From Phycisphaerae bacterium (GTDB taxonomy: Bacteria; Planctomycetota; Phycisphaerae; UBA1845): a stretch of 64,000 nt of DNA. Positions within the stretch are counted from its first letter, which is position 1. Each line of letters opens with the position of its first letter. The position numbers were made by a program, and so were the translations under genes. The stretch spans positions 992,001-1,056,000 of the forward strand of contig CAXXGO010000001.1 of NCBI GenBank assembly GCA_963666835.2. Reading direction: 5' to 3'. A model generated the notes under the pieces. That model was not told the DNA's origin. It worked only from the letters and a program-made list of their open reading frames with translations, and did no database searches. This document shows positions 24,819 through 50,944 of the stretch, in pieces.

Positions 24819-26060
24819 TCAGACTCTGAAGATATTCTCAATTGCGCTACGTAGCTTCTGTTTGAAAGTTGTTCCTGTCTTTCTTGTCTTTCCGAGTAGC
24901 TCCCGGGCCCATAAGAACTCCGTGCCCAGTATAGCCAAGCCGGCCGGGATTATGATAATTGCCGGCCCCGGCAGAACTACCATCGCAATCCCGACAATCA
25001 GTACGCTTGCGCCAGTTAGAACAACTACGATACGACGAGCCTGCTTCCAGGAGTATTCAGCCAAGTTCTCCAGATCGTCTGCTATCGGTGACACAAGGGC
25101 GGCGCTGTCCCGATGACCCGCCAGGATTGACGCCAGGACTCCGACGCCGAGTATTCCGCCGATAATGCTCAGCGAGACTATCGTCGGTATTGGATAGTGG
25201 TGGGCCAGCAGCATCTTCACTCCGACGAAAGCGAGAAGGAACACGAGACTGGTCTTCAGGTACCGAAACCTGTCCATAACGCCGGCGAGCACGAAGTAGA
25301 GAGATCTTAGGCCCAGGATCGCGAACACGTTCGAGGTGAACACGAGGAACGGATCCCGCGTGACGGCGAAAATGGCGGGGATTGAGTCCACCGCGAACAG
25401 AACGTCGGTGCTTTCTACGACCAGCAGTACAAGCAGCAACGGTGTGACCGCACGCTGCCCGCCGATTCGCGTGAAGAATCTCTGTCCGTCCAGTCCAGTG
25501 CTAACCGGGTACATTCTCCGCGCCAGCCGGACCAGCGGGTTTCGGTCAGGCTCCAGGTTGTCGTGACGGACCACAAGAAGCTTGACCGCTGTGGCGATCA
25601 GCAAAGCACCAAAGACATAGGTGATCCACGCGAAGCGGTGAATAAGTACCGTGCCGGCCGCGATCATGCCCCCGCGCATGACCAGGGCCCCGAGGATGCC
25701 CCAGAAGAGCACGCGGTGCTGATAAGTGGCTGGAATGCGAAAATAGGAGAAGATCAAGGCGATGACGAAGATGTTGTCCAGGCTGAGCGACTTTTCCACC
25801 ACGTAACCGGTGAAGAACTGAAGCGCAGCTTGTCCGCCGGTGAGCTCGTAGCCGATCGCTTGGCCTACGCCCAGGACGTGATGCTCATACATCCAGTAGA
25901 CGCCGGCATTGAACAGCATGGCGAGGATCACCCATACCGTCGTCCACACCGCTGCCTCAGAAACGGTTAGGGCGTGGGTCTTGCGGTGAAAGACGCCGAG
26001 GTCCAGGGCCAGCAACGCCAGCACAAAGGCCACAAAGCCGACCCATAGCCAAATGGTCAC
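24819..26060 (-). CDS. TerC/Alx family membrane protein with C-terminal PGPGW-like domain
   Basis: LALDLG, EKSLSLDNIFV, QHRVLFWGILGA, DVLFAVDSIPA, FTSNVFAILGLR; extension VLPGPAIIIIPAGLAILGTEF; GGGAGG RBS. Confidence 0.92.
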   Translation of the reverse strand: MTIWLWVGFVAFVLALLALDLGVFHRKTHALTVSEAAVWTTVWVILAMLFNAGVYWMYEHHVLGVGQAIGYELTGGQAALQFFTGYVVEKSLSLDNIFVIALIFSYFRIPATYQHRVLFWGILGALVMRGGMIAAGTVLIHRFAWITYVFGALLIATAVKLLVVRHDNLEPDRNPLVRLARRMYPVSTGLDGQRFFTRIGGQRAVTPLLLVLLVVESTDVLFAVDSIPAIFAVTRDPFLVFTSNVFAILGLRSLYFVLAGVMDRFRYLKTSLVFLLAFVGVKMLLAHHYPIPTIVSLSIIGGILGVGVLASILAGHRDSAALVSPIADDLENLAEYSWKQARRIVVVLTGASVLIVGIAMVVLPGPAIIIIPAGLAILGTEFLWARELLGKTRKTGTTFKQKLRSAIENIFRV

Positions 26061-26411: not shown

Positions 26412-27536
26412 GTGTCTGACCAACTGAGCCGTGCCCAGTTTCCGGATGACGAAAGCAGCAGCGACCTTCAAATGCCCCTGCTTGATGGCGCCACTGCGCA
26501 GGCAGCACCCATTTCGGCCGATCTCGATACGCAGCGAGTCAGGGCGGCCGACCCAGGCCAGCCGCTTTCGGATCGCCTCGAGGCGTACGAAGACATCATA
26601 GACTCCGAGGTCGGCGATACTCGCCTGGCGCGCGCCCGCAACGTGGAACGGGAAGTGGGCCTGCGGCAGATCTACCTGAAGTTCGAAGGGGGCAATCCGT
26701 CCGGGACGCAAAAAGACCGCATTGCATTCGCTCAGACTATGGACGCCGTACGCCGCGGATTCGATGCCATCACGGTGGCGACTTGCGGAAACTACGGCGT
26801 AGCCATTGCCCTGGCTGCGTCGCTGGCGGGGGTCAGATGCGTTCTCTACATTCCTGACGGCTACCGGACGCGTCGCTTCAGGGAGCTTGAGGCCTTGGGG
26901 GCCGAGATCGTCCGGGCGCGAGGCGATTACGAGAGCGCCGTCCTGGAATCACGACAACGGGCCGAGCGTGAGGAGCTGTATGACGCCAACCCCGGCGGCG
27001 CTAACACCGATTTGCAGTTGCGTGCGTATGGTGAGATAGCCCACGAGATTTATGACGAGCTGCGCGACGCCCCGGCTGCGGTAGCCGTTCCCGTCTCCAA
27101 TGGTACGACGCTGGCCGGCATCTACCGGGGCTTCGTCAGCTTGTATCGACGCGGCAAGACGTCGCGCATACCGCGCATGGTAGCGGGCTCGTCGTTCGGC
27201 AAGAACCCCATTATTACCTCGTTTCTGAAGAACGCCGCCAAGTGTACGGACCTGGCGCCCGAACGCATCCGGGAAACCCGGGTCAACGAACCTCTGATCA
27301 ACTGGCACTCGATTGATGGGGACCTTGCGCTGGAGGCGGTTCGGGCCAGCAATGGCTGGGCCGCCAATGCCAGCGACAAGGTGATGCTCAGTTTCTCGAA
27401 GACCTTGCGTGAGCGGGAGGGGCTTAGCGTGTTGCCGGCTTCGACGGCCGGATTGAGCGTGCTGGTCGGGCGACATCAGAAAGAGCCTCTGCCCGGTGAC
27501 CGGTACGTCGTGGTCCTAACCGGAAAGAAATCATGA
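26412..27536 (+). CDS. PLP-dependent fold-type II enzyme (threonine synthase-like)
   Basis: YLKFEGGNPSGTQKDR (PLP Lys), ATCGNYG, VPVSNGTTL, VVVLTG. Confidence 0.85.
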   Translation: MSDQLSRAQFPDDESSSDLQMPLLDGATAQAAPISADLDTQRVRAADPGQPLSDRLEAYEDIIDSEVGDTRLARARNVEREVGLRQIYLKFEGGNPSGTQKDRIAFAQTMDAVRRGFDAITVATCGNYGVAIALAASLAGVRCVLYIPDGYRTRRFRELEALGAEIVRARGDYESAVLESRQRAEREELYDANPGGANTDLQLRAYGEIAHEIYDELRDAPAAVAVPVSNGTTLAGIYRGFVSLYRRGKTSRIPRMVAGSSFGKNPIITSFLKNAAKCTDLAPERIRETRVNEPLINWHSIDGDLALEAVRASNGWAANASDKVMLSFSKTLREREGLSVLPASTAGLSVLVGRHQKEPLPGDRYVVVLTGKKS

Positions 27537-28618
27537 CCCAGTTCCCGGAAGGCAATGCGATCGTCTATTGTGAGGGGGCGTTCGGAACCACAAATGGCAA
27601 GACAGCTCACGGGTTGGTTCGGCGCACTGAGCGCTACCGGTTGTTGAGCGTCGTGGACTCCAGACGCGCGGGCGCCGATGCCGGTGAGCTCCTGGACGGG
27701 CGGCACAACGGACTCCCGATCGCGCCCGACATATCGGGTGCCGTGGAGTCAGCCAAGAAGAACGGTCATCGGGCGACGCACTTGGTGATCGGTCTGGCAC
27801 CCGACGGGGGCCGGCTCTCGCTCGAAGCCCATAACGATGTCATGGCCGCGATAAGGCTCGGGCTGAACGTCGATTGCGGCCTGCACGACTTCCTGACGGA
27901 GGACCCCATCATGAGCGAGCTTGCCCGGGCCCATGGGGTGACCCTTCGGGACGTGCGCAAGACGCCGCCGCGAAGCGAACTTCACTTCTTCAGCGGCAGA
28001 ATCGAGCAGGTGCGATCGTTGAAGGTTGCTATGCTGGGGACGGATTCGGCTGTTGGTAAGCGTACGACGGCCTGGAGGATCATCGACGGTCTGCGCGAGG
28101 CGGGCTATACGGCCGAACTCGTGGGCACGGGCCAGACGGCTTGGATGCAGGGAGCGCGATACTCGATCATCATGGATTCGCTCATCAACGATTTCGTGGC
28201 CGGCGAGATCGAGCACGCCGTCTGGAGTGCGTGGGACGATGTGCATCCGGACGTGATCGTGATTGAAGGCCAGGGCAGCTTGATGAACCCGGCCTACCCC
28301 GGTGGCTACGAGATCCTCGCAGCGGGTCGACCGGACGTGGTGATCATGCAGCACGCCCCGGCACGGAAAGAGTACGACGGATTCCCCGGTTATCCCATGC
28401 ACCCGATCGAGAAGCAGATTCAAGCGATTGAGCTGATCTCCGAGAAACCGGTCGTGGCGATCACTGTCAACCATGAGAACTTGAATGACACGGAGTTGCG
28501 TAGGGCATGCGTGGAGCTGCATGACCGTACCGGCCTTCCGGCGTGCGACGTATTGAAGGAGGGGCCTTCTGCAATCGTGGAAGTGCTTAAGTCGCGGCTG
28601 AGGAAAGAGGCAACGTGA
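27533..28618 (+). CDS. DUF1611 family protein (DgcN-like)
   Basis: GKTAHGLVR, GLHDFL, GTDSAVGKRTT P-loop, GTGQT, DFVAGEIE, IEGQGSL; ATGA overlap with the upstream gene. Confidence 0.88.
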   Translation: MTQFPEGNAIVYCEGAFGTTNGKTAHGLVRRTERYRLLSVVDSRRAGADAGELLDGRHNGLPIAPDISGAVESAKKNGHRATHLVIGLAPDGGRLSLEAHNDVMAAIRLGLNVDCGLHDFLTEDPIMSELARAHGVTLRDVRKTPPRSELHFFSGRIEQVRSLKVAMLGTDSAVGKRTTAWRIIDGLREAGYTAELVGTGQTAWMQGARYSIIMDSLINDFVAGEIEHAVWSAWDDVHPDVIVIEGQGSLMNPAYPGGYEILAAGRPDVVIMQHAPARKEYDGFPGYPMHPIEKQIQAIELISEKPVVAITVNHENLNDTELRRACVELHDRTGLPACDVLKEGPSAIVEVLKSRLRKEAT

Positions 28619-31122
28619 TGGCACGATCTTCCGACAGAACCCGTAAGGATTCGAGTGGACGTGCCCCCGGGCAGCGGCCTGCATCATCCGATCCCGCTGA
28701 TCCTCTGGCCCCGCTGCGGGTATTGGAACGACTCGAGGTCGGTCCCGTGCGGGTGCAGGCCAACCGGCTCACCGCCCCGTACGTCGTTGTGCGCAACGGA
28801 ACCGAGGAACGCACCGAGTTGGCTTATCGCTGGCAGGAGAATGTGTTCGCGCCCAACGATGCGGCATCGAAGAACCTGGCGGCGATGGTGGCCGCGCAGG
28901 TCGCGTTGAACTACGGGCTCTTCTGCGACGAGATTGTATTTCACGGCGCGTATGACTCTGCGGACCGGCGGTTTCTGAAAGACATGGCAGAGAACACGGC
29001 CCGCGAGATCTACGTAAAGAAGTTTCTTGAACCGAATCCGTTCCTGGTGGGACCGGCAACCGAGCTTCCAACGGTGAAGCGCGAGCGATATTTGCACGCC
29101 AAGCTGGTCTTCCCGGACATCGAGGAAGATCCGAACACGGGCAATCCGGGCAGTCCGGGGTTGCTCTTCGCCCCCGGGGACCGCGCGCGGCACCTCATCC
29201 TGTCAAGCGGCGGTAAGGACAGCCTGCTCACTTTCGGCCTGCTGCGCGAGCTGGGCTTTGAGACGCATCCCGTCTTCATCAACGAGTCCGGCCGACATTG
29301 GTTTACCGCGCTGAATGCGTACCGACACTTCGATCCCCAGGTACCGAACACGGCACGCGTGTGGACAAACGCTGACCGAGTTTTCTCGTGGATGTTGCGG
29401 CATTTCCCGTTCATTCGGTCTGACTTCCAGAGTCTCCGCTCCGACGAGTACCCGATACGACTCTGGACGGTAGCCGTCTTCTTGTTTGGGGCGCTCCCTC
29501 TGGCACTTAAGCGCGGAGTCGGCCGAGTCATCATCGGGGATGAGTACGACGCCACCGAGCGGACCAGCTTCAAGGGGATAACGTACTACAATGGCGTGTA
29601 CGACCAGAGCCGGTACTTCGACAACGCGCTTTCGCGATACTACGCGCGCAAGCGTTGGGCCGTCTCCCAGTTCTCACTCCTGCGGCCGCTGTCGGAGCTG
29701 TTGATCGAGAAGATGCTTGTGGAACGCTATCCGGACCTGCTGCAGTTGCAGGTATCGTGCCACGCCGCCCACAAGGAGGAGGGCCGCGTTCGTCCATGCG
29801 GCAAGTGTGAGAAATGCCGTCGGATTGTCGGGATGATTATGGCTCTGGGAGGCGACCCGGCCGCATGCGGCTACCCCAAGGACCGTGTCACCGAATGCCT
29901 CACCGCCCTCGCCGCCAAAGGGGTACATCAGGAGAAGGACGGGGTAGAACACCTGATGTACATGTTGCGCGAGCGCGGTCTGCTTAGCGTCTCCAATCGT
30001 ATGACGCAATCGCCGAGGCCGCATCCGGAGATCATGCAATTGCGCTTCGATGCTGAACGCTCACCGGAGAATTGGATCCCCGGTGATCTGCGGGCCCATC
30101 TGCTGCCGATTTTCCTTGAGCACGCTCAGGGTAGCGTGCGGCGCAGCGGGAAGGTGTGGGTCGAGTTCGACGCCCGGACCGACCCGGCGATGGCCGCTGC
30201 ATACCCATTCGAGAAGACCTCGGCGGGCACGGCATCGGATGCTGAAACCCTGCAGCGCCCCGGCCGATCGAGAGCGCTGTCCCAAGCGGCCGGCGAATCG
30301 GTGAAGGGCCCATCCGCGGGACCGCTTGACGGGAAGCGGCGTTCCTTCATCTGGGGCGAGCTGACTTGGCCCGAGGCTCAGGCGCGCTTGAAGGAAGTGG
30401 ACGTGGCCATGCTCCCTGTGGGGGCTATTGAGCAACATGGTCCGCACCTTCCACTGGACACGGATGCGTTCGATGCGCTATACCTGGCTAAGCAGGTAGC
30501 CGCTGCCTGCCGGGATCCAAAGCCGTTTGTGCTACCCCTCATTCCGTACGGCGTGTCTTATCACCACGATGATTTTGCCGGTACGCTCAGCGTAAGCAAC
30601 GACGCCATTGCCACGATTGCGTACGATATAGGCATCAGCGCCGCCCGTAACGGTATTACCAAGCTCATCATCATTAACGGGCACGGAGGCAACGCTGCCA
30701 GTCTCCACTTCGCCGCTCAGATGATAAACCGCGACGCACGCATCTTCACGTGTGTGGACACCGGTGAGACCAGTGACGCGGACATCGAGGGAATGGCCAA
30801 TACTCGCAGTGATATTCATGCCGGTGAGATTGAAACCAGCACAACACTGGCTACCCGCCCGGAACTGGTGCAGATGGACAAGGCCCGTAAGTACGTGCCG
30901 CGTTTCTCGAGCAGCTATCTGGATTTCAGTTCCAAGCGAAGCATTGACTGGTATGCCCGGACCGCCAAGATCTCGCGCAGTGGCGTGATGGGTGATCCGT
31001 CCAGGGCCAGCAAGGAAAAGGGCGAGCGGATGTGGGCGGTCATGATCAAGAACCTCGTCGAGTTCGTCGAGCACCTCAAGAGCATGAGTCTCGACGAGAT
31101 CCACCAGCGCAACCGCTACTAG
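28615..31122 (+). CDS. Fusion: PP-loop ATPase/Zn-binding (QueC/MurL-like) domain + creatininase-family amidohydrolase
   Basis: LILSSGGKDSLL PP-loop; SCH-x11-CGKCEKC; low-complexity linker; C-terminal LTWPE...GAIEQHGPHLPLDTD, NGHGGN, HAGEIETS, GVMGDP. Confidence 0.85.
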   Translation: MMARSSDRTRKDSSGRAPGQRPASSDPADPLAPLRVLERLEVGPVRVQANRLTAPYVVVRNGTEERTELAYRWQENVFAPNDAASKNLAAMVAAQVALNYGLFCDEIVFHGAYDSADRRFLKDMAENTAREIYVKKFLEPNPFLVGPATELPTVKRERYLHAKLVFPDIEEDPNTGNPGSPGLLFAPGDRARHLILSSGGKDSLLTFGLLRELGFETHPVFINESGRHWFTALNAYRHFDPQVPNTARVWTNADRVFSWMLRHFPFIRSDFQSLRSDEYPIRLWTVAVFLFGALPLALKRGVGRVIIGDEYDATERTSFKGITYYNGVYDQSRYFDNALSRYYARKRWAVSQFSLLRPLSELLIEKMLVERYPDLLQLQVSCHAAHKEEGRVRPCGKCEKCRRIVGMIMALGGDPAACGYPKDRVTECLTALAAKGVHQEKDGVEHLMYMLRERGLLSVSNRMTQSPRPHPEIMQLRFDAERSPENWIPGDLRAHLLPIFLEHAQGSVRRSGKVWVEFDARTDPAMAAAYPFEKTSAGTASDAETLQRPGRSRALSQAAGESVKGPSAGPLDGKRRSFIWGELTWPEAQARLKEVDVAMLPVGAIEQHGPHLPLDTDAFDALYLAKQVAAACRDPKPFVLPLIPYGVSYHHDDFAGTLSVSNDAIATIAYDIGISAARNGITKLIIINGHGGNAASLHFAAQMINRDARIFTCVDTGETSDADIEGMANTRSDIHAGEIETSTTLATRPELVQMDKARKYVPRFSSSYLDFSSKRSIDWYARTAKISRSGVMGDPSRASKEKGERMWAVMIKNLVEFVEHLKSMSLDEIHQRNRY

Positions 31123-31132
31123 GGTTATCACC

Positions 31133-32200
31133 ATGCGCATAACCAGACTCGAAGTTTGGCCCGTAAGGATGAAACTGAAGGAACCCTATACGATTGCATA
31201 CGAGACGATCGATCACACCACGAACATCTTCCTGCGAATCGAGACCAGCAAGGGCGTAACTGGGTACGGCTGTGCGGCCCCGGACGAGGGCGTAACGGGA
31301 GAGACCGCAGAGGGGTGTTTGAAGAACCTACAGGAGATCGCGGCCGAGGTGCTTTCGGGAAAAGACCCCACCCGATACGCGTTGTTGCTGGAGCGTCTCA
31401 GCGAAGCCCTCCCGAATGCGCCCTCGGCGAGAGCAGCCGTCGACATGGCCCTGTTCGACATCCTCGGCAAACTGGCCCAGCTTCCCGTCTGGAAGTTGCT
31501 CGGGGGCTACCGCGACCGCATCAAGACCAGCGCTACCATCGGTGTCATGTCGGTGGAGGATACACTGCAGCGAGCCCGAGCACTTGTTGGCGACGGCTTC
31601 CAGTCGCTCAAACTAAAGGGTGGAGTCAATGTTGAGGAAGACATCGCCTGCGTGTTGGCTGTTCGCGATGCCGTCGGCTCAAAGATCGAGCTTCGATTTG
31701 ATGCCAATCAGGGGTGGACGGTCGACGGCTCGCGCCGGTTCGTGGAAGGTACACGACGCGCCAAGCTCGAGCTGATCGAACAGCCCACTCGTCGCGACCA
31801 ACCAGACCTCCTGGGGCGAGTCACTCAGTCTGTGCCCGTGCCCGTAATGGCGGATGAAAGTCTGATGTCGCTTCGTGACGCCTTTCGTCTGGCTCGCAAG
31901 GACTTGGCCGACATGGTGAACATAAAGCTGATGAAGGTCGGAGGGATCTTCGAGGCAATTCAGATTAACGGCGTCGCGCGCGCGGCGCGGCTGGAAGTGA
32001 TGGTGGGATGCATGGATGAGGCCGCCCTGGCGATCGCCGCCGGCCTGCATTTTGCGCTGTCTCGGCGAAACGTGGCTTACGCCGATCTGGACGGACATCT
32101 TGACCTAATAGACGACCCATCTGTAGGAGCAGTAAACCTGCGTCATGGCGTTCTCTATCCGAACAAGGCCCCGGGACTGGGCTTTGACTTGCATCCGTAG
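31133..32200 (+). CDS. Dipeptide epimerase (L-Ala-D/L-Glu epimerase / DgcA-like, enolase superfamily)
   Basis: KLK general base, DANQG, EQP, ADES, IKLMK, GCM, DLD. Confidence 0.9.
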   Translation: MRITRLEVWPVRMKLKEPYTIAYETIDHTTNIFLRIETSKGVTGYGCAAPDEGVTGETAEGCLKNLQEIAAEVLSGKDPTRYALLLERLSEALPNAPSARAAVDMALFDILGKLAQLPVWKLLGGYRDRIKTSATIGVMSVEDTLQRARALVGDGFQSLKLKGGVNVEEDIACVLAVRDAVGSKIELRFDANQGWTVDGSRRFVEGTRRAKLELIEQPTRRDQPDLLGRVTQSVPVPVMADESLMSLRDAFRLARKDLADMVNIKLMKVGGIFEAIQINGVARAARLEVMVGCMDEAALAIAAGLHFALSRRNVAYADLDGHLDLIDDPSVGAVNLRHGVLYPNKAPGLGFDLHP

Positions 32201-32323
32201 GACGTGCGGCGCCGTGATCACAGGCCACGATCGCGTCTTGCAGTACTCCGCGTGCTTGCCACTACCCGTCCAACAGACGATGCGTAGCTACCATAGGGAC
32301 TGCCTCGGTTTTCTGGGGTCACG

Positions 32324-33379
32324 GTGTCTGTCATGACGAGCCAAAGACGAAAACGTTCCGATCGCCTGCTGAGTGTTCTTAATGAGCATGACGAGACGAT
32401 GGTCATTATGCACAACAACCCGGATCCGGACGCCATCGCCACGGGCTGGGCCATCGTCTTGCTCGTGGAGCGTCGATTGCACAAACCCGTGCGGTTGCTG
32501 GGCCGCGGGCCGGTCCTGCGCGCCGAGAACGTTCAGCTCATCAAGTTGCTGCAACCGCCGATCGAGTTCGTCGACGAGATTAATCCGAACACGCGGACGG
32601 CCACGGTGTTGGTTGACTGTTCACCCGCCTCGGTGAATCACCTGCTGGGCGGCGACAAGGCGCCGGTTGCGGTTATCGATCATCACGAGTCAAAGGGCGA
32701 TGGCTTTCGGATTCCCTTCCGCGACCAGCGGCCGAAGGTCGCGGCTTCGGCGAGCATTGCCGCGCAGTACATGCGGGAACAGCGCCTCGAACCGACTTCC
32801 GCTGTCGCCACTGCCCTCCTTTATGCCATTCGTACCGAGATGATCGGAGCACGGAAAGCACTATCCCGCGTGGATCATGCGGCCCTGCGGTGGCTCTCCG
32901 GTTGCACAGCGTACGACGCCCTGTTCGAGATCGAAAACCCGCCGCTCCCGCGTTACTACTATGAGGAACTGCTGCTCGGCCTGGATAGCGTGCTTGTGTA
33001 TGCGGAGTCGGCGGTGTGTTTCCTGCCTCGAATCACCGCACCGGAGATTGTCGCGGAAATGGCGGACCTCCTCATCCGGTGTGATGGCCTCAGGTTCGTT
33101 CTTTGTGGGGCCAGGAATGGCGATGACTTCCTTATGTCTGCCAGATCCAAGGGCGAGGGAGACACCGCGCTGGCTTTGCTGAGCCATGTGCTGCAAGGGC
33201 TAGGCCATTTTGGGGGACACTTACATCGTGCCGGGGGGAAGATCTCCGTGCCGGGGTCCGGGATGGATTCTGACGCGCTGGAACAGGAGATTCGCACGCG
33301 ATGGCTGCATGCATGCGGCAGCACGACGCACCGAGGACAGCGGCTTGTGGGGCGCAAGGAGCTCATGAGGCGAGTCTAA
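32324..33379 (+). CDS. DHH family phosphoesterase (NrnA-like)
   Basis: HNNPDPDA, LVD, IDHH, GGHLHRAGG. Confidence 0.88.
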   Translation: MSVMTSQRRKRSDRLLSVLNEHDETMVIMHNNPDPDAIATGWAIVLLVERRLHKPVRLLGRGPVLRAENVQLIKLLQPPIEFVDEINPNTRTATVLVDCSPASVNHLLGGDKAPVAVIDHHESKGDGFRIPFRDQRPKVAASASIAAQYMREQRLEPTSAVATALLYAIRTEMIGARKALSRVDHAALRWLSGCTAYDALFEIENPPLPRYYYEELLLGLDSVLVYAESAVCFLPRITAPEIVAEMADLLIRCDGLRFVLCGARNGDDFLMSARSKGEGDTALALLSHVLQGLGHFGGHLHRAGGKISVPGSGMDSDALEQEIRTRWLHACGSTTHRGQRLVGRKELMRRV

Positions 33380-36002: not shown

Positions 36003-36100
36003 ACCGCCCCGTGCAAATGGTGCCGGGTAATGCCGCCACCGGGTGTCCGCGTGCAGGAGTAACTTCCGTGACACGACGCCGTGCTAGCACCAACTGGTAT

Positions 36101-37078
36101 ATGCTGGCGCACGAGGTCGAAACCGCCCTGCGGACCTGCGGCGGTGGATTCCCCAAGTCTGTGCGGATTGATGGGAAGCTCAATCGGCTCGAGGCCGGCC
36201 TGAGCCATCAAAACTACTGGTTTCGAATCAAAGCCGACAGGCCTTTGCCTGATGCTGAGGACACCGTCTACGTCTTACGCAAGCTTGCAGCGCGGCCCCT
36301 CGTCGTATCCAACGAGAAAGCGATTGCCCGTCTTGAAAGGGAAGCGCTGACTTTGCAGGCGTTGGCCTCGCACACATTCGATTTTTCGGTGCCCAGATTC
36401 GTTTGTTTTGTGCGTGATGCTCAGGAGTCGGTCACGGGATTGATCGAAACGGGGCTTCCGGGGCCCTCGCTCGAGTACCTCAGGAAGAACCGGGACAAGC
36501 ACGCGTTCCTTGTTGAAACCGTGGCCCGGATCGCAAGCGCTGTTCATCGCGTGCCGCCGAACACCCTCGACTTCCTTCCGCGCCGGCATGACAGCCGCGC
36601 TCACGTGCAGGCCAGGCTCGACGGCTTTTCTGCCGAGTTCATTACGCGAGATTCGGACGCCGCCGTGGTTGCCGATTGGGTGTGAGATCACCTGCCCGAG
36701 GATCGGCCGTCCGTGCTGCTTCACGGCGATCTGCTTCCGCAGAACATTCTCTGGGATTGGGAGACGAACGAATTGAGCGTGGTTGACTGGGAATACGCCG
36801 GCGTTGGCGACCCGGCTTACGATCTCGCAATCGTGACGCGCGGCTACGCCAAACCTCTCGGATGCCCGAAGGGGCTTTCGCGACTGGTTAATGCCTACCG
36901 CCAAGCCGGCGGGATGGCGATCGGCGTCGCGGATGTTGTCTGCCATGAGCTGCTCATGGTGCTGGGCTGGCTGGAGGAGTCTGTGCGGGCCGAGCGAGAG
37001 AAACGCCGCGAAGGGCACCCACCTTCCCAACGGAGAAACCAGATTCGAGCGATTCTCCGCCGGGCCAAGTCGTTGTGA
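36101..37078 (+). pseudogene. Aminoglycoside phosphotransferase (APH/choline kinase-like) family gene with in-frame TGA at 36683-36685
   Basis: ORFs 36011-36685 and 36713-37078 share one frame: ...ADWV*DHLPEDRPSVLLHGDLLPQNIL...VVDWEYAGVGDPAYDLA. Confidence 0.8.
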
Positions 37079-37241: not shown

Positions 37242-37301
37242 TGCGAAATCAATTAATCTGGAGCTTGGGTCAGAACTTTGGTCTCTCGGAGGAGAACGAA
37301 G

Positions 37302-40300
37302 ATGTCGCGTCCTGGCACGTCCGCATTGATAATCTCGCTGGCTATCCTGTCTTCGGTAAGCGCCCAGACTGTGATCCATGTTGACATTGATGCTCCACCT
37401 GACGGAGATGGGACGTCCTGGACGACTGCCTACAACTCACTGTCCGCTGCTCTGGCGGCTGCGGAACCAGGCGATCAGATTTGGGTGGCGGCCGGGCGGT
37501 ATGTGGGGAGGATCAGGCTTGCGCTTGAGGTCCAGCTTTATGGCGGTTTCGCGGGCACGGAGACCGAGTTGGATCAGCGCGACTGGACGACCCACAAGAC
37601 CATCATCGATGGCGACAAACGCGGCAGCGTGGTCACCTCGCCCGTTGGCGCGGGCGAAACGACGCGGATCGACGGCTTCACGATCACGGGAGGTGGCGCC
37701 TTCTACGGGGGCGGGCTGCTCCTCGAAAGTTCCTCCCCGACTATCGCGAACAACACGATCACGGGAAACAGTGGCTGGCACGGCGGCGGGCTGTATCTGT
37801 CGAATTCCGATGCAACGATTGCGAACAACACGATCACGGAAAACACGGCTCTTAGAGACTGCTATGGTGGCGGCGGGTTGTACCTGTACGAGTCCTCGCC
37901 GGTGATCGCGAACAACACAATTACGGGCAACAGCGCAGCCGACTCCGGTGGCGGGCTGTTGCTCGAGAGTTCCTCCCCGACGATCGCGAACAACACGATC
38001 ACGGGCAACGGCGCCTGGAGCGGCGGCGGGCTGTATCTGCGGTCTTCCGCCCCGACGATCACGAACACTATCATCGCGTTGAACTCGTCCGGGGTCCACC
38101 TGGAAGACGACGAAAACACGCCGACTCTCCGGTACAACTGCGTCTACGGCAACGCCGCGTACGATTGGTATGGACTCCCGAACCCCACCGGGACCGATGG
38201 GAACATCTCGCAGGACCCGTTGCTTGCCGATGCACGGTATCGCAACGTACACATCCAGCCGGACTCGCCTTGCGTGGATGCCGGAAGCAACCCGGACGCC
38301 TACGGCAACCTCGATCTGGATGGAGAGCCCCGCATCCATCCGGTGGACGGAATCGTGGATATCGGAGCCGACGAGTCGGATGGTACGTTGTGGCCAACAG
38401 GGCCGTATGCCGTTGTGCGAGTGAGCTCCCTGGGGGACGACATCAACGACGGCTCGTCCTGGGCCCAGGCCAAATGCACGGTCCAGGCGGGAGTCGACGC
38501 GGCATCGGTGCTGGGTGGCGAGGTGTGGGTGCAGTCCGGTTCTTACGAGGAGAACATCACCCTACGCCCCTATGCCTACCTCTACGGAGGCTTCGCTGGT
38601 GACGAGGAGGTCCGGGACGAGCGGGATTGGGCTGCTAACGTCACAATACTAGACGGCCGGCAGCAGGATTCGGTCGTGGCCGCAAGAGCGGGCTACAATG
38701 TAAGTGCCATCGAGGGCTTCACGATCACGGGAGGTCGCGCCAATCACGGCGGCGGGCTGCACGTGTACGGTTCCTCCCCGACGATTGCGAACAATACCAT
38801 CGCGGGAAACACGGGCGGCGGGCTGTATCTGTGGTATTCCGATGCAACGATTGCGAACAACACGATCACGGGAAACAGGGGCTCCCATGGCGGCGGGCTG
38901 TATCTGTGGCATTCCGTTGCAACGATCGCGAACAACACGATTAGGGGCAACAGCGCAGCCGACTCCGGTGGCGGGCTGTTGCTCGAGAGTTCCTCCCCGA
39001 CGATCGCGAACAACACGATAACGGGCAACAACGCCTACAGCGGCGGCGGACTGCACCTCGAGGATTCGTTCCCGGCGATCGCGAACACGATCATAGCGTT
39101 CAACTCGTCCGGGGTTTACCTGGACGATACAAGCGCGCCGACCCTCTGGCACAACTGCGTCTACGGCAACCCCGGGTACGATTACGATGGTCTCTCGGAC
39201 CCCACCGGGACCGGCGGCAACATCTCCCAAGACCCGTTGCTTGCCGATGCCCGGTATGGCAACGTACACATCCAGCCGGGCTCGCCTTGCGTGGATGCCG
39301 GAAGCAACCCGGACGCCTACGGTGATTTCGATGTGGATGGCGAGCCCCGCATCCATCCGGTGGACGGAATCGTGGACATCGGGGCCGACGAGTCGGATGG
39401 TACGTTGTGGCCAACGGGGCCGTATACCGTTGTACGGGTGAGCCCCCTGGGAGACGACATCAACGACGGCTCGTCCTGGACCCTGGCCAAATGCACGGTC
39501 CAGGCGGCAGTCGACGCGGCATCGGTACTCGGTGGCGACGTGTGGGTGCAGTCCGGTTCCTACGAGGAGAACATCACCCTGCAACCCTATGCCTACCTCT
39601 ATGGAGGCTTCGCCGGGAACGAAGAGGTTAGGGACGAGCGGGACTGGGTTGCCAACGCTACGATTCTCGACGGCCGGCAGCAAGGTTGGGTCGTGACGGC
39701 AGAAGCGGGCCACCATGTAAGCGCCATCGACGGCTTCACGATTACGGGAGGTGGCGCCATGTACTCGTACGGCGGCGGGCTGCGGCTGGTGTCTTCCTCC
39801 CCGACAATCGCGAACAACACGATAACGGGAAACAGCGCCGTCTTCGGCGGCGGGCTGTACCTGTTGTCTTCCTCCCCAACGATCGCGAACAACACGATTA
39901 CGGGCAACAATTCATCCGACGAGGGCGGCGGGCTGTTCCTCGAGAGTTCCTCCCCGACCATCGCGAACAACACGATCACGGGAAACGCCTCTAGATATAG
40001 ATCTGGCGGCGGGCTGTACCTGTTGTCTTCCTCCCCGACGATCGCGAACAACACGATCACGGGAAACAGTGCCGAACGCGGCGGCGGGCTGTATCTCCGG
40101 GATTCCTTCCCGACGATCGCGAACAACACGATAACGGGAAACCGTTCATCCGGCTGCGGCGGCGGACTGTATCTGTGGTCTTCCTCCCCGACGACTGCGA
40201 ACAACACGATCACGAGCAACAGCGCGGTCAACGGCGGCGGGCTGTACCTTTACAACGGTTCCTCCCCGATGATCGCGAACACGATCATCGCGCTCAACTC

Positions 40301-42206
40301 GTCCGGGGTTTACGTGTACGACAGCGAGCCGACCCTCTGGTACAACTGCGTCTACGGCAACGCCGAGTACGATTACGATGGCCTCTCGGACCCCACTGGG
40401 ACCGATGGCAACATCTCCGAAGACCCGTTGCTTGCCGATGCACAGTATGGCAACGTACATATCCAGCCGGACTCGCCTTGCGTGGATGCCGGAAGCAACA
40501 CGGATGTCTACGGTGATTCCGATCTCGATGGAGAGCCCCGCATCCATCCGGCGGACGGAATCGTGGATATCGGAGCGGACGAGTCGGATGGTAGCTTGTG
40601 GCCAGCGGGGCCATACGCCGTTGTACGGGTGAGTCCCCTGGGGGACGACATCAACGACGGCTCGTCCTGGGCCCTGGCCAAGTATACGGTCCAGGCGGCA
40701 GTCGACGCGGCATCGGTCCTGGGTGGCGAGGTGTGGGTGCGGTCCGGTTCCTACGAAGAGAACATCACCCTACACCCCTATGCCTACCTCTATGGAGGCT
40801 TCGCCGGCGACGAAGACGTTCGGGGCGAGCGGGACTGGGTTGCCAACGTTACGATTCTCGACGGTCGGCAGCAAGGGGCGGTGGTGACTGCGAATGCGGG
40901 CCACCATGCAAGCGCCATCGACGGCTTCACGATCACGGGAGGGAGCGCCAAGTACGGCGGCGGGCTGTCGCTGTTGCATTCCTCCCCCACGATTGCGAAC
41001 AACACGATCACGGTCAACAGTTCATCCGAAGACGGCGGCGGATTGTATCTCCGGTATTCCTTCCCGACGATCGCGAACAACACGATAACGGGCAACAGTG
41101 CCAAACACGACGGCGGTGGACTGTATCTGCAATATTCCTCCCCAACGATAGCAAACAACACAATAACGGGCAACACGACTGACGGAAGCTGCAACGGCGG
41201 CGGCGGACTGTATCTGCATTATTCGTCCCCGACGATCGCGAACAACACGATAACGGGCAACAGTGCCAAATACGACGGCGGCGGGCTGCGTCTGCATTAT
41301 TCTTCCCCGACGATCGCGAACAACACGATAACGGGCAACACGGCCAGTGACGACGGCGGCGGGCTGTTCATGTCGAGATCCTCCCCGACGATCGCGAACA
41401 ACACGATAACGGGCAACAGCGCAGCCGACTTCGGCGGTGGGCTGTATCTGTGGTATTCCGATGCAACGATCGCGAACAACACGATAACGGGCAACAGCGC
41501 AGCCGACTCCGGCGGTGGGCTGTGTCTGTCGTATTCCTCAAACCCGACGATCGCAAACACGATCATCGCATTCAACTCATCCGGAGTTTACCTGGACGAC
41601 GACACAAACGCGCCGACCCTCTGGTACGACTGCGTCCACGGCAACGCCGAATACGACTACGATGGCCTCCCGGACCCCACCGGGACCGACGGCAACATCT
41701 CGCAAGACCCGCTGTTCGTGCGAGATCCCGACGATGGTGGCGACGGCTGGGGTGATGATCCCGACACGCCGGCCATCGACGAAGGCGCCAACGACGACTA
41801 CGGCAACCTCCGCCACTTGCCTGGCTCGCCGTGCATTGACGCCGCTGACAACGATGCCGTCCCCGACGACACGCTCGACCTGGACGGTGATGGCGACGTG
41901 ACCGAATCGATCCCGTTCGACCTCGATGGCTACACCCGCTTCGTGGATGACCCGCGGACGGCGGACGCAGGGAACCCCGGCGGGCACGGACCGCCCGTTG
42001 TCGATATGGGTGCCTACGAGTTCCGCCCGGGGGACTGCGGCCATGACGGTGACGTGGACATGTCCGACTACGCAGAGTGGGAGAGCTGTCTCTCGGGCCC
42101 CGAGTACCAGACCCCGGCCGAGTGCGAGTGCTTCGACGTAAACGGCAACGATCACGTTGACCTCGCTGACTTTGCCGTGCTTCAGGTGAATCTCACGGGG
42201 CCGTGA
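37302..42206 (+). CDS. Large secreted right-handed parallel beta-helix repeat protein (4 modules) with C-terminal dockerin-like EF-hand pair
   Basis: Signal peptide (..VSA-QT); 21 coils of SSPTIANNTITGN-x-GGGLYL; module caps DGxSW, LYGGFAG.E, SPCVDAG, VDIGADE; tail GDCGHDGDVDMSDY...DVNGNDHVDLADFAVLQ; GGAGGAG RBS. Confidence 0.92.
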   Translation: MSRPGTSALIISLAILSSVSAQTVIHVDIDAPPDGDGTSWTTAYNSLSAALAAAEPGDQIWVAAGRYVGRIRLALEVQLYGGFAGTETELDQRDWTTHKTIIDGDKRGSVVTSPVGAGETTRIDGFTITGGGAFYGGGLLLESSSPTIANNTITGNSGWHGGGLYLSNSDATIANNTITENTALRDCYGGGGLYLYESSPVIANNTITGNSAADSGGGLLLESSSPTIANNTITGNGAWSGGGLYLRSSAPTITNTIIALNSSGVHLEDDENTPTLRYNCVYGNAAYDWYGLPNPTGTDGNISQDPLLADARYRNVHIQPDSPCVDAGSNPDAYGNLDLDGEPRIHPVDGIVDIGADESDGTLWPTGPYAVVRVSSLGDDINDGSSWAQAKCTVQAGVDAASVLGGEVWVQSGSYEENITLRPYAYLYGGFAGDEEVRDERDWAANVTILDGRQQDSVVAARAGYNVSAIEGFTITGGRANHGGGLHVYGSSPTIANNTIAGNTGGGLYLWYSDATIANNTITGNRGSHGGGLYLWHSVATIANNTIRGNSAADSGGGLLLESSSPTIANNTITGNNAYSGGGLHLEDSFPAIANTIIAFNSSGVYLDDTSAPTLWHNCVYGNPGYDYDGLSDPTGTGGNISQDPLLADARYGNVHIQPGSPCVDAGSNPDAYGDFDVDGEPRIHPVDGIVDIGADESDGTLWPTGPYTVVRVSPLGDDINDGSSWTLAKCTVQAAVDAASVLGGDVWVQSGSYEENITLQPYAYLYGGFAGNEEVRDERDWVANATILDGRQQGWVVTAEAGHHVSAIDGFTITGGGAMYSYGGGLRLVSSSPTIANNTITGNSAVFGGGLYLLSSSPTIANNTITGNNSSDEGGGLFLESSSPTIANNTITGNASRYRSGGGLYLLSSSPTIANNTITGNSAERGGGLYLRDSFPTIANNTITGNRSSGCGGGLYLWSSSPTTANNTITSNSAVNGGGLYLYNGSSPMIANTIIALNSSGVYVYDSEPTLWYNCVYGNAEYDYDGLSDPTGTDGNISEDPLLADAQYGNVHIQPDSPCVDAGSNTDVYGDSDLDGEPRIHPADGIVDIGADESDGSLWPAGPYAVVRVSPLGDDINDGSSWALAKYTVQAAVDAASVLGGEVWVRSGSYEENITLHPYAYLYGGFAGDEDVRGERDWVANVTILDGRQQGAVVTANAGHHASAIDGFTITGGSAKYGGGLSLLHSSPTIANNTITVNSSSEDGGGLYLRYSFPTIANNTITGNSAKHDGGGLYLQYSSPTIANNTITGNTTDGSCNGGGGLYLHYSSPTIANNTITGNSAKYDGGGLRLHYSSPTIANNTITGNTASDDGGGLFMSRSSPTIANNTITGNSAADFGGGLYLWYSDATIANNTITGNSAADSGGGLCLSYSSNPTIANTIIAFNSSGVYLDDDTNAPTLWYDCVHGNAEYDYDGLPDPTGTDGNISQDPLFVRDPDDGGDGWGDDPDTPAIDEGANDDYGNLRHLPGSPCIDAADNDAVPDDTLDLDGDGDVTESIPFDLDGYTRFVDDPRTADAGNPGGHGPPVVDMGAYEFRPGDCGHDGDVDMSDYAEWESCLSGPEYQTPAECECFDVNGNDHVDLADFAVLQVNLTGP
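37370..41720 (+). repeat. Nested intragenic repeats: four modules of about 1.0-1.2 kb, each with 66-75 bp tandem units
   Basis: Module offsets 1020 bp (38221 vs 39241) and 1191 bp (39241 vs 40432); 75-bp identity between 37925-37999 and 38945-39019. Confidence 0.95.
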
Positions 42207-48211: not shown

Positions 48212-48661
48212 TTGAATTCAAAACCGATCGTCGGTCGGCGCGAGTATGTGGCGTTCCCGGAGTGGGGTATTAAGGGTGTCGAGGCGAAGATCGACACGGG
48301 AGCTCGCACGAGCGCAATTCACGTGGACAACGTCAAGCGACTTCCGAAGGATCGCGTTCAGTTTGATGTAGTCCTGAGCCGCCGGAAGCCGGACAGGCGC
48401 GTTCACGTAGAGGCTGACTTAGTCCGTTTCACGCGCGTGCGATCCAGTACGGGGCACCGGCAGGAGCGATTCGTGGTGGCGACAAAGATACGAATCGGAG
48501 ATATCAAACGCAGAATCGAGCTGAGCCTCGTATCCAGGAAGCAGATGCTCTGCAGGATGTTGCTGGGCAGGACGGCCGTAACCGGCCTTCTGATCGATGT
48601 CGACGTAAAACACCTCCATGGTGTGCCGAAGCGTCAGGGCCCGAAAGGACGTGCCAAATGA
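48212..48661 (+). CDS. RimK-associated retropepsin-like protease (RimB / Zn_protease DUF785-like)
   Basis: IVGRRE, AKIDTGARTSAIH, VRSSTG, R..M..RMLLGR; TTG start with GGAG RBS; ATGA overlap with rimK. Confidence 0.85.
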   Translation: MNSKPIVGRREYVAFPEWGIKGVEAKIDTGARTSAIHVDNVKRLPKDRVQFDVVLSRRKPDRRVHVEADLVRFTRVRSSTGHRQERFVVATKIRIGDIKRRIELSLVSRKQMLCRMLLGRTAVTGLLIDVDVKHLHGVPKRQGPKGRAK

Positions 48662-49866
48662 AGATCGCCATTCTGTCAAGAGCTCCCAACTGCTACAGCA
48701 CGAAGCGCCTTTGGCAGGCCGCGGAACTGCGCGGCCATCAGGTTTCCGTTCTCAACACCGGGCATTTTGCCATCTCGCTCGAGGAGCAATACCCCGACCT
48801 TTACTACGATGGCAAGCCCGTTGCGCCCTTCGATGCCGTTATTCCGCGGATTGGTTCGCCAATGACGTATTTCGGTACGGCAGTGGTCAGGCAATTCGAG
48901 GAAATGGGCGTCTTCTCGGCGAACTCGGCGATTGGGATCATTCACTCGCGTGACAAGCTCCGTTGCCTGCAAATCCTGAGCAGGCATGACGTCGGCATCC
49001 CTCAGACCGCATTCGTCCGCGACCGCAAGGACGTACTCCCGGCGATCAAACGCGTCGGGGGCGCGCCCATCATTATCAAGCTCCTGGAAGGCACTCAAGG
49101 TGTCGGGGTGATATTGGCTGACACGATCAAAGTGGCGGAAGCGATTGTCGAAACCCTGCAGAGTGCCAAGCAGAACGTACTTATACAGAAGTTTGTCTCT
49201 GAGAGTAAGGGCAAGGATGTGCGCGCCTTCGTCGTTGGAGAGCGCGTGGTCGCCGCGATGCGACGGGTCGCTCAGGGACAGGAGTTCCGGAGTAATGTGC
49301 ATCGCGGCGGCATGGCCGAAGCGATCACGCTCGATCCTGAATACGAGCAGACCGCCATTCGGGCAGCGCAGTTGGTGGGGCTGCGTGTGGCCGGCGTCGA
49401 CATGCTCGAGGGCACGGACGGCCCCCAGATCATGGAAGTCAACTCGTCGCCGGGGCTCGAGGGTATTGAAAGCGCAACACAAATCGACGTTGCCGGGGCA
49501 ATCGTTGAATACCTGGAAGATCGAGTGAATCTGCCGGATATGGACCTGCGCCAGCGACTTACCGTAACACGAGGGTACGGCGTTGGAGAAATCCCCGTTC
49601 CGAAGAGTTCGGCCCTGGTCGGCACGTCGATCGTAGACACGAATCTGCGGGCACTCGACATCGTGGTGTTGACGCTTCACCGCGGGAAGAAAGTCATTGC
49701 CAACCCGAAGGAGACCCGCAAGCTTCGTGCGGGCGATCGCCTGCTGTGTTTCGGAAAACTCGACGAGATGAAGGCGCTCATTCCACGACGCAAGAAACGC
49801 CGGGTCAAGAAGCTGGCGAAGAAGGTCGTGGAAGAGGCGATGGCATCCGCACCAGAGCAAGGATAG
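48658..49866 (+). CDS. rimK: RimK alpha-L-glutamate ligase (ATP-grasp) fused to a TrkA-C/RCK_C domain
   Basis: MKIAILSR, DAVIPRIG, RDKLRCLQIL, KLLEGTQG, FRSNVHRGG, EVNSSPGLEGIE; tail SALVGTSI...VLTLHRG...NP...LRAGDRLLCFG. Confidence 0.93.
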   Translation: MKIAILSRAPNCYSTKRLWQAAELRGHQVSVLNTGHFAISLEEQYPDLYYDGKPVAPFDAVIPRIGSPMTYFGTAVVRQFEEMGVFSANSAIGIIHSRDKLRCLQILSRHDVGIPQTAFVRDRKDVLPAIKRVGGAPIIIKLLEGTQGVGVILADTIKVAEAIVETLQSAKQNVLIQKFVSESKGKDVRAFVVGERVVAAMRRVAQGQEFRSNVHRGGMAEAITLDPEYEQTAIRAAQLVGLRVAGVDMLEGTDGPQIMEVNSSPGLEGIESATQIDVAGAIVEYLEDRVNLPDMDLRQRLTVTRGYGVGEIPVPKSSALVGTSIVDTNLRALDIVVLTLHRGKKVIANPKETRKLRAGDRLLCFGKLDEMKALIPRRKKRRVKKLAKKVVEEAMASAPEQG

Positions 49867-49870
49867 GCCC

Positions 49871-50944
49871 ATGCCTCGAAAGGACCTTCTTACGTTCGGC
49901 GACGAGAGTGTAGCGCTTGGCCAACGGAGGAATCTCGCCCTCACGGTTTCCCAAAGCTACAGCGGCGCGCCCGTTACCCTTCCGATCACAGTTTGGCGCG
50001 CCGTGAAGCCGGGTCCTGCGGTCTTTGTCACCGCTGCGGTTCACGGCGACGAGCTAAACGGCACGGGAATCGTCCGGGAGATCATCCTCCATGCGCCGTT
50101 TGAACTCATCGCCGGGTCGCTAGTGCTTGTGCCGGTCGTGAATCTGCTCGGTTTTGAACGCCACACCCGCTATCTGCCGGACCGGCGGGACATGAATCGT
50201 TGCTTTCCCGGATCCGCGGACGGCAGCCTGGCGAGCCGCATGGCCCACGTTATCTTCTCCAGCGTTATCAGCCAATGTGACTACGGAATCGATCTTCACA
50301 CGGCCGCGGTACGCCGTACGAATTTCCCGAGCGTGCGAGCGGACCGCAAGAACCCGGAGGCCGCCCGGATTGCCCGAGCATTCGGCTGCGAAGTGATCGT
50401 CAACCGAAAGGGGCCCAAGGCGTCCCTGCGGCGCGAGGCGTGCGACGCCGGGTGCGCAACGGTCATCCTTGAGGCTGGGGAAGTGTGGAAGATCGAGCCC
50501 AACGTGGTGCAGTACGGCATTCGAGGTATTCGAAACGTGCTGATCGAGCTGGGAATGGTAGAAGGGACTCGGGAGGAGCCAGTGTATCAAGTCTGGACTC
50601 GGAAGACCATTTGGGTCCGGGCAAGCTTCGGAGGTATGCTGGCCTTTCACGTGGCTCCAGGCGATATCGTCGAAAAGGACGAGCCCCTGGCGACAAGCAC
50701 GAATCTTCTGGGGGAGGAGCAGGATCTCCTTCGTTCACCCAGTGACGGGATTATACTTGGTATCACAACGCTACCCACCGTTACCCCGGGCAGTCCCGTG
50801 TGCCACATCGCGGTCCCGCGTGGTGGACTCGGGCCGATTCGCCGGGCACTCGAGAAGGAGTCCACCGAGAGTCTGCATGAGCGCCTCAGGGATGACCTTG
50901 CCGCTAGTGTGACTATCTCAGAGCGGGCGGATCCGGCGGGCTGA
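49871..50944 (+). CDS. Succinylglutamate desuccinylase/aspartoacylase family (M14-like) protein
   Basis: AAVHGDELNG, DMNRCFPG, IDLHT, LEAGE, C-terminal barrel-sandwich-like region. Confidence 0.9.
   Translation: MPRKDLLTFGDESVALGQRRNLALTVSQSYSGAPVTLPITVWRAVKPGPAVFVTAAVHGDELNGTGIVREIILHAPFELIAGSLVLVPVVNLLGFERHTRYLPDRRDMNRCFPGSADGSLASRMAHVIFSSVISQCDYGIDLHTAAVRRTNFPSVRADRKNPEAARIARAFGCEVIVNRKGPKASLRREACDAGCATVILEAGEVWKIEPNVVQYGIRGIRNVLIELGMVEGTREEPVYQVWTRKTIWVRASFGGMLAFHVAPGDIVEKDEPLATSTNLLGEEQDLLRSPSDGIILGITTLPTVTPGSPVCHIAVPRGGLGPIRRALEKESTESLHERLRDDLAASVTISERADPAG

Follow-up and report, generated by a model that had tools for sequence, protein, structure and literature searches.

A conserved four-gene operon around an unmodelled QueC-fold PP-loop family encodes an undescribed pathway

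A stretch of DNA from a Phycisphaerae bacterium, referred to here as the window (64,000 nucleotides of contig CAXXGO010000001.1, assembly GCA_963666835.2; C1:992001–1056000 of the 6.0-Mb, 92%-complete genome G000), carries an operon of four genes coding for a pyridoxal 5'-phosphate (PLP) enzyme, a DUF1611 protein, a fusion of a PP-loop ATP pyrophosphatase to a creatininase-family domain, and an enolase-superfamily epimerase (Table 1). We conclude that this cassette represents a conserved, undescribed pathway, assembled from known superfamilies around a QueC-fold family that none of the tested database models names. The gene order recurs in most related loci long enough to be judged, and the catalytic motifs are kept throughout. 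The gene set is undescribed in the searched literature, made up mostly of freely available papers, and in this respect the original prediction of an undescribed pathway stands. Our preferred, still tentative, reading is that the cassette may build a small modified dipeptide in the cell.

Results

The operon is intact and its gene order is conserved

The four genes are intact, lie on the same strand and are tightly packed. Genes 1 and 2 overlap by ATGA (27533–27536), genes 2 and 3 by GTGA (28615–28618), and genes 3 and 4 are spaced by 10 bp (31123–31132), in agreement with the two 4-bp overlaps and the short gap originally reported; the second overlap shrinks to 1 bp if gene 3 starts at the alternative ATG at 28618, 7 nucleotides after a GAGG. 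A contig from a second study (X3, record 9) spans 28270–32300 uninterrupted, with five substitutions and no gaps, so the fusion in gene 3 is not an assembly error. A low-depth contig, X4 (depth 2.9), from the same sample as X3, has a 1-base insertion at 28774 that is absent from X3 and from X1, the latter being possibly the source of the window itself. All four genes are single-copy in G000. Pfam searches of their products returned PALP, DUF1611 with DUF1611_N, creatininase (residues 582–818 of gene 3 only) and MR_MLE_N/C, respectively, and the single NCBIfam model passed by any of them was PRK06381, by gene 1.

Table 1. Coordinates of the cassette genes (window positions) and of genes inserted in related loci
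Feature	Position	Strand	Length (amino acids)	Family or remark
Gene 1, PLP fold-type II enzyme	26412..27536	+	374	PRK06381 family
Gene 2, DUF1611 + DUF1611_N protein	27533..28618	+	361	DgcN-like, predicted N-acyltransferase
Gene 3, PP-loop/creatininase-family fusion	28615..31122	+	835
Gene 3, N-terminal part	28615..30240	+		~160-residue alpha/beta domain + QueC-fold PP-loop ATP pyrophosphatase
Gene 3, C-terminal part	30325..31122	+		creatininase/MftE-family metal-dependent amidohydrolase domain, PF02633
Gene 4, enolase-superfamily enzyme	31133..32200	+	355	dipeptide-epimerase-like
AlaDh/PNT-family insert (dehydrogenase)	L062:5621-6946
AlaDh/PNT-family insert (dehydrogenase)	L120:5578-6918
ATP-grasp-like insert	L062:9362-10273		303–310
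ATP-grasp-like insert	L120:9355-10287		303–310
ATP-grasp-like insert	L074:2387-3298		303–310
ATP-grasp-like insert	L131:10340-11260		303–310

Conservation was assessed in 104 loci retrieved with the PP-loop domain as query, 24 from a collection of species genomes and the best 80 of 541 metagenome loci; picked by similarity and including kin, they are not independent. The titles of the species-genome loci name Chitinivibrionia, Aminicenantes, Deltaproteobacteria, Gemmatimonadota, Eubacteriales, Calditrichaceae, Bacteroidota and Krumholzibacteria. Seventy-four loci are long enough to judge all four genes, and 69 of these hold them in order, 65 strictly adjacent and four with inserts or wider spacing. 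The five exceptions comprise three loci without the creatininase domain, one without DUF1611, and one without the DUF1611 and PLP genes, both of which are present on another contig of that genome. The order is also kept in 18 further loci, among which L205 and L206 are cut off by the end of a contig and L212 has a frameshift. The synteny at issue in the original prediction is thus found in other genomes, and the catalytic motifs that it described as intact prove near-invariant over the 104 loci. No flanking gene is conserved in this set, where the commonest flanking family reaches 19/104, so no transporter or regulator is kept; nor is there a conserved small partner gene.

Co-occurrence singles out two of the enzymes. 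The PP-loop profile and PRK06381 match an identical 4 of 41 genomes (relatives, G000 included), whereas DUF1611 matches 15 of the 41, and in the phylum of genome G042 the seven genomes out of 251 with a close PP-loop match are the seven with the PLP enzyme. Because they form the tightest pair, the PLP enzyme and the PP-loop protein look like the core of the system rather than additions to it. A broader PP-loop profile matches 11/301 genomes of the phylum of G909 and 10/301 of the window's phylum, three of them strongly, and a tblastn search of a plasmid collection with the PP-loop domain gave no match. When PP-loop domains were placed in a tree of 26 rows, from which L001 with its broken gene was left out, the labelled groups cluster by lineage and 12 of 23 inner branches are open; we therefore claim patchy presence and not recent horizontal transfer. 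Distance correlations among the five domains (0.67–0.80) reflect shared ancestry and are not independent evidence. One genome holds a second, diverged copy of the whole cassette (L153, G041:C281), with a GshB-like ATP-grasp protein, MATCAP and an N-formylglutamate amidohydrolase as neighbours; similar neighbours occur at L024 and L212.

Gene 3 joins a QueC-fold domain to an amidohydrolase-type domain

Residues 1–570 of gene 3 have no Pfam match. The PP-loop-bearing domain, of about 500 residues versus about 220 in QueC, has an SGGKDS loop, whose Lys201 and Asp202 are kept in 103/103 loci, and a C-x12-CxxCxxC motif, whose four cysteines (C382-x12-C395-x2-C398-x2-C401) are invariant in 104/104. 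Comparison of its AlphaFold model (predicted local distance difference test score, pLDDT, 85.5) with solved structures gave QueC (Z 12.5, root-mean-square deviation (rmsd) 3.1, 186 residues aligned) and Cap9 (Z 12.2, rmsd 3.0, 177 aligned), with argininosuccinate synthetase behind them at Z 10.0, while the top Foldseek match was QatC (E 2.7e-5, template modelling (TM) score 0.34, about 400 columns). The same domain found nothing significant in a sequence search of solved structures and does not match PF06508 (QueC), and the motifs given for the roughly 220-residue QueC in the main text of a family survey (YxQxHxxE, VPxRN and YPDC; PMC13329287) are all missing from the window protein. That text describes the chemistry of QueC, Cap9 and QatC as amide-bond-forming, QueC amidating a carboxylate with ammonia; it contains no mention of creatin-, DUF1611, epimerase or threonine synthase, and the survey's supplementary neighbourhood tables may bear on the point. 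The N-terminal 160-residue domain, folded alone (pLDDT 90), has no clear structural match, the sole hits being RNase HI at a TM score of about 0.3 and rmsd 6–16.

At the level of sequence the nearest characterised family is MurL. The domain scores 29.6 bits against the MurL model NF041275, far below the cut-off of 700 (E 2.4e-7), and HHalign pairs it with a MurL-like protein, itself scoring 476 bits on that model, at 96.2% (E 2.2e-9) over only 91 columns around the zinc site. Ranked by Atlas language-model features, its own family comes first (0.98), followed by a mostly archaeal cluster (0.97) and then MurL (0.96, 27/30 hits). From these comparisons we assign the PP-loop half to a QueC-fold family that is named by none of the Pfam or NCBIfam models tested, and regard it as a distant homologue of MurL. 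Several proteins lie around this boundary. Those at L172:3082-4443, L173:7672-9039, L185:5544-6911 and L186:5819-7153 are stand-alone PP-loop/zinc proteins of about 450 residues that passed no tested model and are distant kin of both the cassette family and MurL; those at L187:6206-7561 and L189:5622-7058, from genomes of the window's phylum, are MurL-like (476 and 218 bits, cut-off 700).

The family is large. Among 8,000 scored there are 3,083 clusters at 90% identity, and at 50% identity it has 649 representatives with E values of up to 0.001, many being fragments. When ten divergent clusters were looked up, two bore Thermoplasmatota names and one Methylomirabilales. MurL itself is a feature of genomes that lack glutamate racemase (MurI) and have MurD2. 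Of ten cassette genomes tested for MurI, six have it above cut-off; the 92%-complete G000 shows no match. Given the archaeal members and the MurI genes, a cell-wall role, or a supply of D-glutamate for peptidoglycan, is unlikely. A MurL profile run over 301 genomes of the phylum of G041 gave one weak match, itself a cassette. Among the 120 best hits, 111 carry the PP-loop domain joined to creatininase, and among 32 long hits for DUF1611, 29 (29 clusters) have it joined to DUF1611; these two fusion types place its step between those of the two partners. A third type, PP-loop with a methyltransferase domain, is seen in P0155 (825 residues).

The creatininase-type domain passes PF02633 with 235.8 bits (cut-off 31.3) and falls below the cut-offs for MftE (TIGR03964, 149 against 172) and creatininase (TIGR04448, 103 against 235). 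Glu606, His608 and Asp617 are kept in 97/97 loci, His690 in 96/97 and Glu740 in 95/95; we take these five residues to be the binuclear metal ligands. Since the ligands are kept but the domain reads NGHGGN where creatininase has NGHYEN, it is a member of the family, probably with another substrate. The proposal that the fusion could both activate a carboxylate with ATP and hydrolyse an amide is consistent with the predicted fold and with the motifs.

Genes 1, 2 and 4 diverge from their named relatives

Gene 1 scores 424.6 bits against NF004996 (PRK06381, labelled threonine synthase; cut-off 266) and only 85.2 against the ThrC model TIGR00260, the cut-off of which, 167.1, is exceeded by a separate gene at C5:196986 (222.8 bits). 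This pair of scores speaks against the refuting case named in the original prediction, that the PLP enzyme is the housekeeping ThrC. Among solved structures gene 1 is closest to threonine synthases (E ~1e-24), its identity to other PLP enzymes is about 30–32%, and the PLP lysine, Lys101, is kept in 76/77 loci. In the Thermus threonine synthase T88, N154, S155, R160 and N188 are presumably the ligands of the phosphate of O-phosphohomoserine. The gene 1 family keeps both asparagines, has Tyr or Phe in place of T88 and Pro in place of S155, and has no Arg in the R160 region, where the alignment is gapped. With a separate ThrC in the genome and three of five phosphate-ligand positions changed family-wide, we infer that gene 1 catalyses a different beta- or gamma-elimination or replacement reaction, and the threonine-synthase label of PRK06381 is likely wrong. 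A search for PLP-enzyme fusions turned up a single 1,762-residue eukaryotic gene call joining all five domains, which we took to be an artefact.

Gene 2 (PF07755/PF17396) combines a Rossmann-like N-terminal domain with a P-loop domain bearing a GKRTT motif, and scores 158.8 bits on the DgcN model NF041892 against a cut-off of 480. Cassette DUF1611 proteins are 56–71% identical to one another and 28–31% identical to other DUF1611 proteins, and two cassette-bearing relatives carry extra, ordinary copies about 30% identical to the cassette form. On these identities we place the cassette proteins in a distinct subfamily. DUF1611 appears in the searched literature in connection with Dickeya topics only, and no joint mention with an epimerase was found in that mostly freely available set of papers.

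In gene 4 the residues K160, K162, D190, E216, D241 and K265 are invariant where covered (81–85 loci), giving it the predicted full catalytic set of KxK motif, three metal ligands and second lysine. It is below the cut-offs of NF042940 (DgcA, 174/400), NF041118 (228/500) and NF011708 (100/343), and its nearest solved relatives are 3JVA, 2P88, 1JPM and 3RIT. Position 24, which is Arg in the Bacillus subtilis enzyme 1JPM, where we assume that it binds the glutamate side chain, is Glu in 87/90 loci and Gln in 3/90; D51 is present in 80/90, and D318 and D320 (DxD, here DLD) in 79/79. A GCMDE motif and an acidic position 51 are common to gene 4 and 3RIT, and position 51 is also acidic in 2P88; both of these enzymes act on Lys- or Arg-containing substrates. 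There is consequently a moderate case that the residue at the inverted position would be basic rather than acidic.

The original prediction had seen in genes 2 and 4 a DgcN/DgcA core with two extra enzymes, and this part of it finds no support. With both cut-offs missed (DgcN 159/480, DgcA 174/400), a DUF1611 protein about 30% identical to ordinary ones and Glu at the Arg24 position, the cassette is probably not an extension of the D-glutamate route.

A sister operon and inserted genes

A PP-loop protein 32% identical to that of the window lies at L171:2-3720 (G441:C89) in a run comprising a KamA-family gene, a D-Ala-D-Ala-ligase-like (ATP-grasp) gene, the PP-loop gene and a GNAT gene; no close PLP enzyme or epimerase was shown in G441. 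This run is a second undescribed pathway using the PP-loop family, and by analogy it would follow the same logic as the cassette with other parts, resembling the plan for N-acetylglutaminylglutamine amide (NAGGN). KamA and two Ddl-like genes are also found at G000:C1:956571-959243, about 60 kb upstream.

Additional genes are inserted in a few cassettes. An AlaDh/PNT-family gene, which we presume to resemble lysine-ketoglutarate reductase, occurs in 2/104 loci, and 4/104 have an ATP-grasp-like gene within the operon or next to it; the latter has no Pfam, NCBIfam or Protein Data Bank match, and its ATP-grasp label is a tentative one based on a motif. In the split locus L023 a GNAT gene stands just upstream of the fusion. 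Together with the sister operon, these genes, in few loci, suggest a chemistry of amine-bearing amino acids, acetylation and the formation of peptide bonds. The gene at G000:C6:65834-67132 matches the AlaDh/PNT-family insert of L062 at 47%.

Other features of the window

Both genes flanking the cassette have close copies elsewhere on C1, without a cassette there: the TerC gene (window 24819–26060) is 87% identical to C1:579196-580422, and the DHH gene (32324–33379) 84% identical to C1:554430-555470. Further along the window lie a phosphotransferase (APH)-like gene at 36011–37078, read as two same-frame open reading frames split by a stop at 36683–36685, a gene for a 1,642-residue beta-helix repeat protein with three long internal repeats (37278–42206), and RimK and AstE/AspA genes (amide chemistry; 48658–50944). 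A DUF5698/DUF2179 membrane protein is encoded within a few kilobases of the cassette in 13/104 loci from several lineages; in G000 it is at C1:1005393-1005950, about 13 kb upstream.

Discussion

A possible dipeptide assembly line, and what weighs against it

Although we would not yet call it probable, we favour a reading in which the cassette builds a small modified dipeptide and the order of the genes is that of the reactions; we infer every substrate and role, as well as that order. By beta- or gamma-replacement the PLP enzyme would produce a non-standard amino acid, one that probably carries an amine, and the DUF1611 protein would N-acetylate this amino acid, the acetyl serving as a protecting group. 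The QueC-fold domain would then adenylate the carboxylate, converting ATP to AMP and pyrophosphate, and couple it with an amine, for which a basic amino acid is the likeliest donor. The fused creatininase-family domain would strip off the acyl group or turn the product over, and the epimerase would convert the basic residue at the C-terminus into its D form. The dipeptide could be a peptidase-resistant stress solute like NAGGN. Such an assembly line accounts for both fusion types, the pairing of the PLP and PP-loop enzymes, the missing transporter and the sister operon. More doubtful is its extension to the family at large, in which this widespread QueC-fold family would be a small-molecule peptide ligase in a protect–ligate–deprotect–invert line, yielding in many phyla an undescribed D-residue dipeptide from a new PLP-made amino acid, with ligase relatives in archaea and in the aminomutase/ATP-grasp/GNAT operon.

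Several observations weigh against the assembly line. MurL, the closest relative by sequence that has been characterised for the PP-loop domain, is an epimerase rather than a ligase. Of the 101 loci that can be judged, four have an epimerase without a creatininase domain, which fits deacetylation before epimerisation badly, and the genome of one of them, G045 (an incomplete assembly), has no PF02633 match. Two of the 18 further loci, L209 and L211, have no epimerase beside the cassette; a close epimerase copy lies elsewhere in G1033. The case for a basic residue is held at moderate strength because 3RIT itself carries Arg at position 24, so that this position alone does not set specificity, and the roles given to E24, D51 and DxD are presumed ones. 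The KamA-type context is a single locus, no second one being found in 21 genomes of the class of G441, and the inserts come from few, probably related loci. Finally, neither a glutaminase domain nor a partner substrate was found.

Because MurL is the nearest named family both by language-model features and by HHalign, we have taken seriously, while judging it on the unlikely side, a route for D-amino-acid salvage or detoxification. DUF1611 would acetylate a D-amino acid, probably a basic one, the PP-loop enzyme would invert it in the manner of MurL at the cost of ATP, the amidohydrolase would deacetylate it, the enolase-type enzyme would handle dipeptides and the PLP enzyme would eliminate or convert a related amino acid. 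Both fusion types suit a sequence of acetylation, inversion and deacetylation; MurL uses one ATP, yields AMP and works in one direction (PMC8788868), and dgcN is described as the central gene of a racemisation route that is both costly and irreversible (PMC12363236). Two stereo-inverting enzymes in so short a route nevertheless look redundant, no transporter or regulator is conserved, and the PLP enzyme, the most strictly co-occurring partner, is left unexplained. Moreover, the MurL match is confined to the 91 columns around the zinc site, and the KamA/ATP-grasp/GNAT context of the sister enzyme looks biosynthetic. If instead the fold is the guide, the PP-loop enzyme could, like QueC or AsnO, use ammonia to form an amide (or nitrile); its product would be the amide of an N-acetylated amino acid, serving as an osmolyte, with the PLP enzyme an ammonia-lyase feeding the synthase and the hydrolase and epimerase turning the solute over. 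This we consider distinctly unlikely. QueC, the best structural match, does amidate a carboxylate with ammonia, and the NAGGN route has acetylation, ligation, amidation and a peptidase (PMC5563000). Flanking genes include MscS-type channels (4/104 loci) and glycosyltransferases with weak matches to mannosyl/glucosylglycerate synthases (8/104), but these are sporadic and the QueC substrate motifs are absent. An enolase-type epimerase needs a carboxylate, to which an amidated C-terminus is ill-suited.

We find very improbable a role like that of QatC or Cap9, which are close to the PP-loop domain by Foldseek and by Z score respectively, in modifying the N-terminus of a protein or peptide while the other enzymes make and remove the tag: no small partner gene is conserved in the 104 loci, the N-termini of the cassette proteins are variable and all the neighbours are small-molecule enzymes. 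The most ordinary explanation, that a DgcN/DgcA route to D-glutamate simply stands together with a housekeeping threonine synthase and with a MurL that takes the place of glutamate racemase for peptidoglycan, is largely refuted and receives next to no weight from us. It can draw on the above-cut-off NCBIfam label of gene 1 and on the lack of a MurI match in G000; set against it are the separate ThrC, the missed cut-offs for DgcN, DgcA and MurL alike, MurI in six of ten cassette genomes, PP-loop relatives in Thermoplasmatota and a patchy presence, in 4/41 relatives.

If the extension of the assembly line to the family at large is true, its product would represent a new class of metabolite and the QueC/MurL/QatC superfamily would gain a new reaction. 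The PP-loop family lies between QueC, the defence ligases QatC and Cap9, and the ATP-driven MurL, and its reaction would show how the fold shifts between ligation and epimerisation. The function of the cassette would also supply a role for the PRK06381 family, whose 'threonine synthase' label is probably wrong, and for the DUF1611 subfamily. As the operon spans 5.8 kb and codes for four soluble enzymes, the proposal can be tested directly.

Comparison with known systems

Like the NAGGN system (Ngg/AsnO/peptidase; PMC5563000), the cassette would combine N-acetylation with the ATP-dependent making of an amide and with a linked hydrolase. We found no homology between the parts: the four cassette proteins have no Pfam or NCBIfam match to Ngg (GNAT + ATP-grasp) or AsnO and lack a glutamine amidotransferase domain, and the cassette adds a PLP enzyme and an epimerase. 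With MurL the PP-loop protein shares a homologous PP-loop/zinc-site core, a size of about 450–500 residues and the adenylation chemistry to be expected of it, but it scores 29.6 of the 700 bits set for MurL, has no mur genes among its conserved neighbours, coexists with MurI, is present in archaea, and is fused to DUF1611 or to an amidohydrolase. QueC, Cap9 and QatC have the same fold (Z ~12), SGGxDS loop and four-cysteine zinc motif, whereas the cassette domain has neither the PF06508 match nor the QueC motifs, differs in its C-x12 spacing and its extra N- and C-terminal domains, and stands among amino-acid genes rather than que or defence genes.

In the DgcN/DgcA route, too, one operon holds a DUF1611 protein together with an epimerase of the enolase superfamily, and the amidohydrolase of the cassette could supply a deacetylation step; the cassette is set apart by scores far below the cut-offs, its own DUF1611 subfamily, the acidic E24 and D51, and near-obligate PLP and PP-loop partners. 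Solved threonine synthases are the closest relatives of gene 1, and MetM is a repurposed and often misannotated threonine-synthase homologue (GapMind 2026, 10.1101/2024.10.14.618325). Gene 1 differs in failing TIGR00260, in its changed T88, S155 and R160 positions and in having no sulfur-carrier genes among its conserved neighbours. Lastly, Glu24 of gene 4 is unlike the residue in the dipeptide epimerases 3JVA (Gly), 1JPM (Arg) and 3RIT (Arg) and in the N-succinylamino-acid racemase 2P88 (Gly), but gene 4 has in common with all four the KxK motif, the Asp/Glu/Asp metal ligands and the second lysine, with the dipeptide epimerases the DxD motif, and with 3RIT and 2P88 the acidic residue 51.

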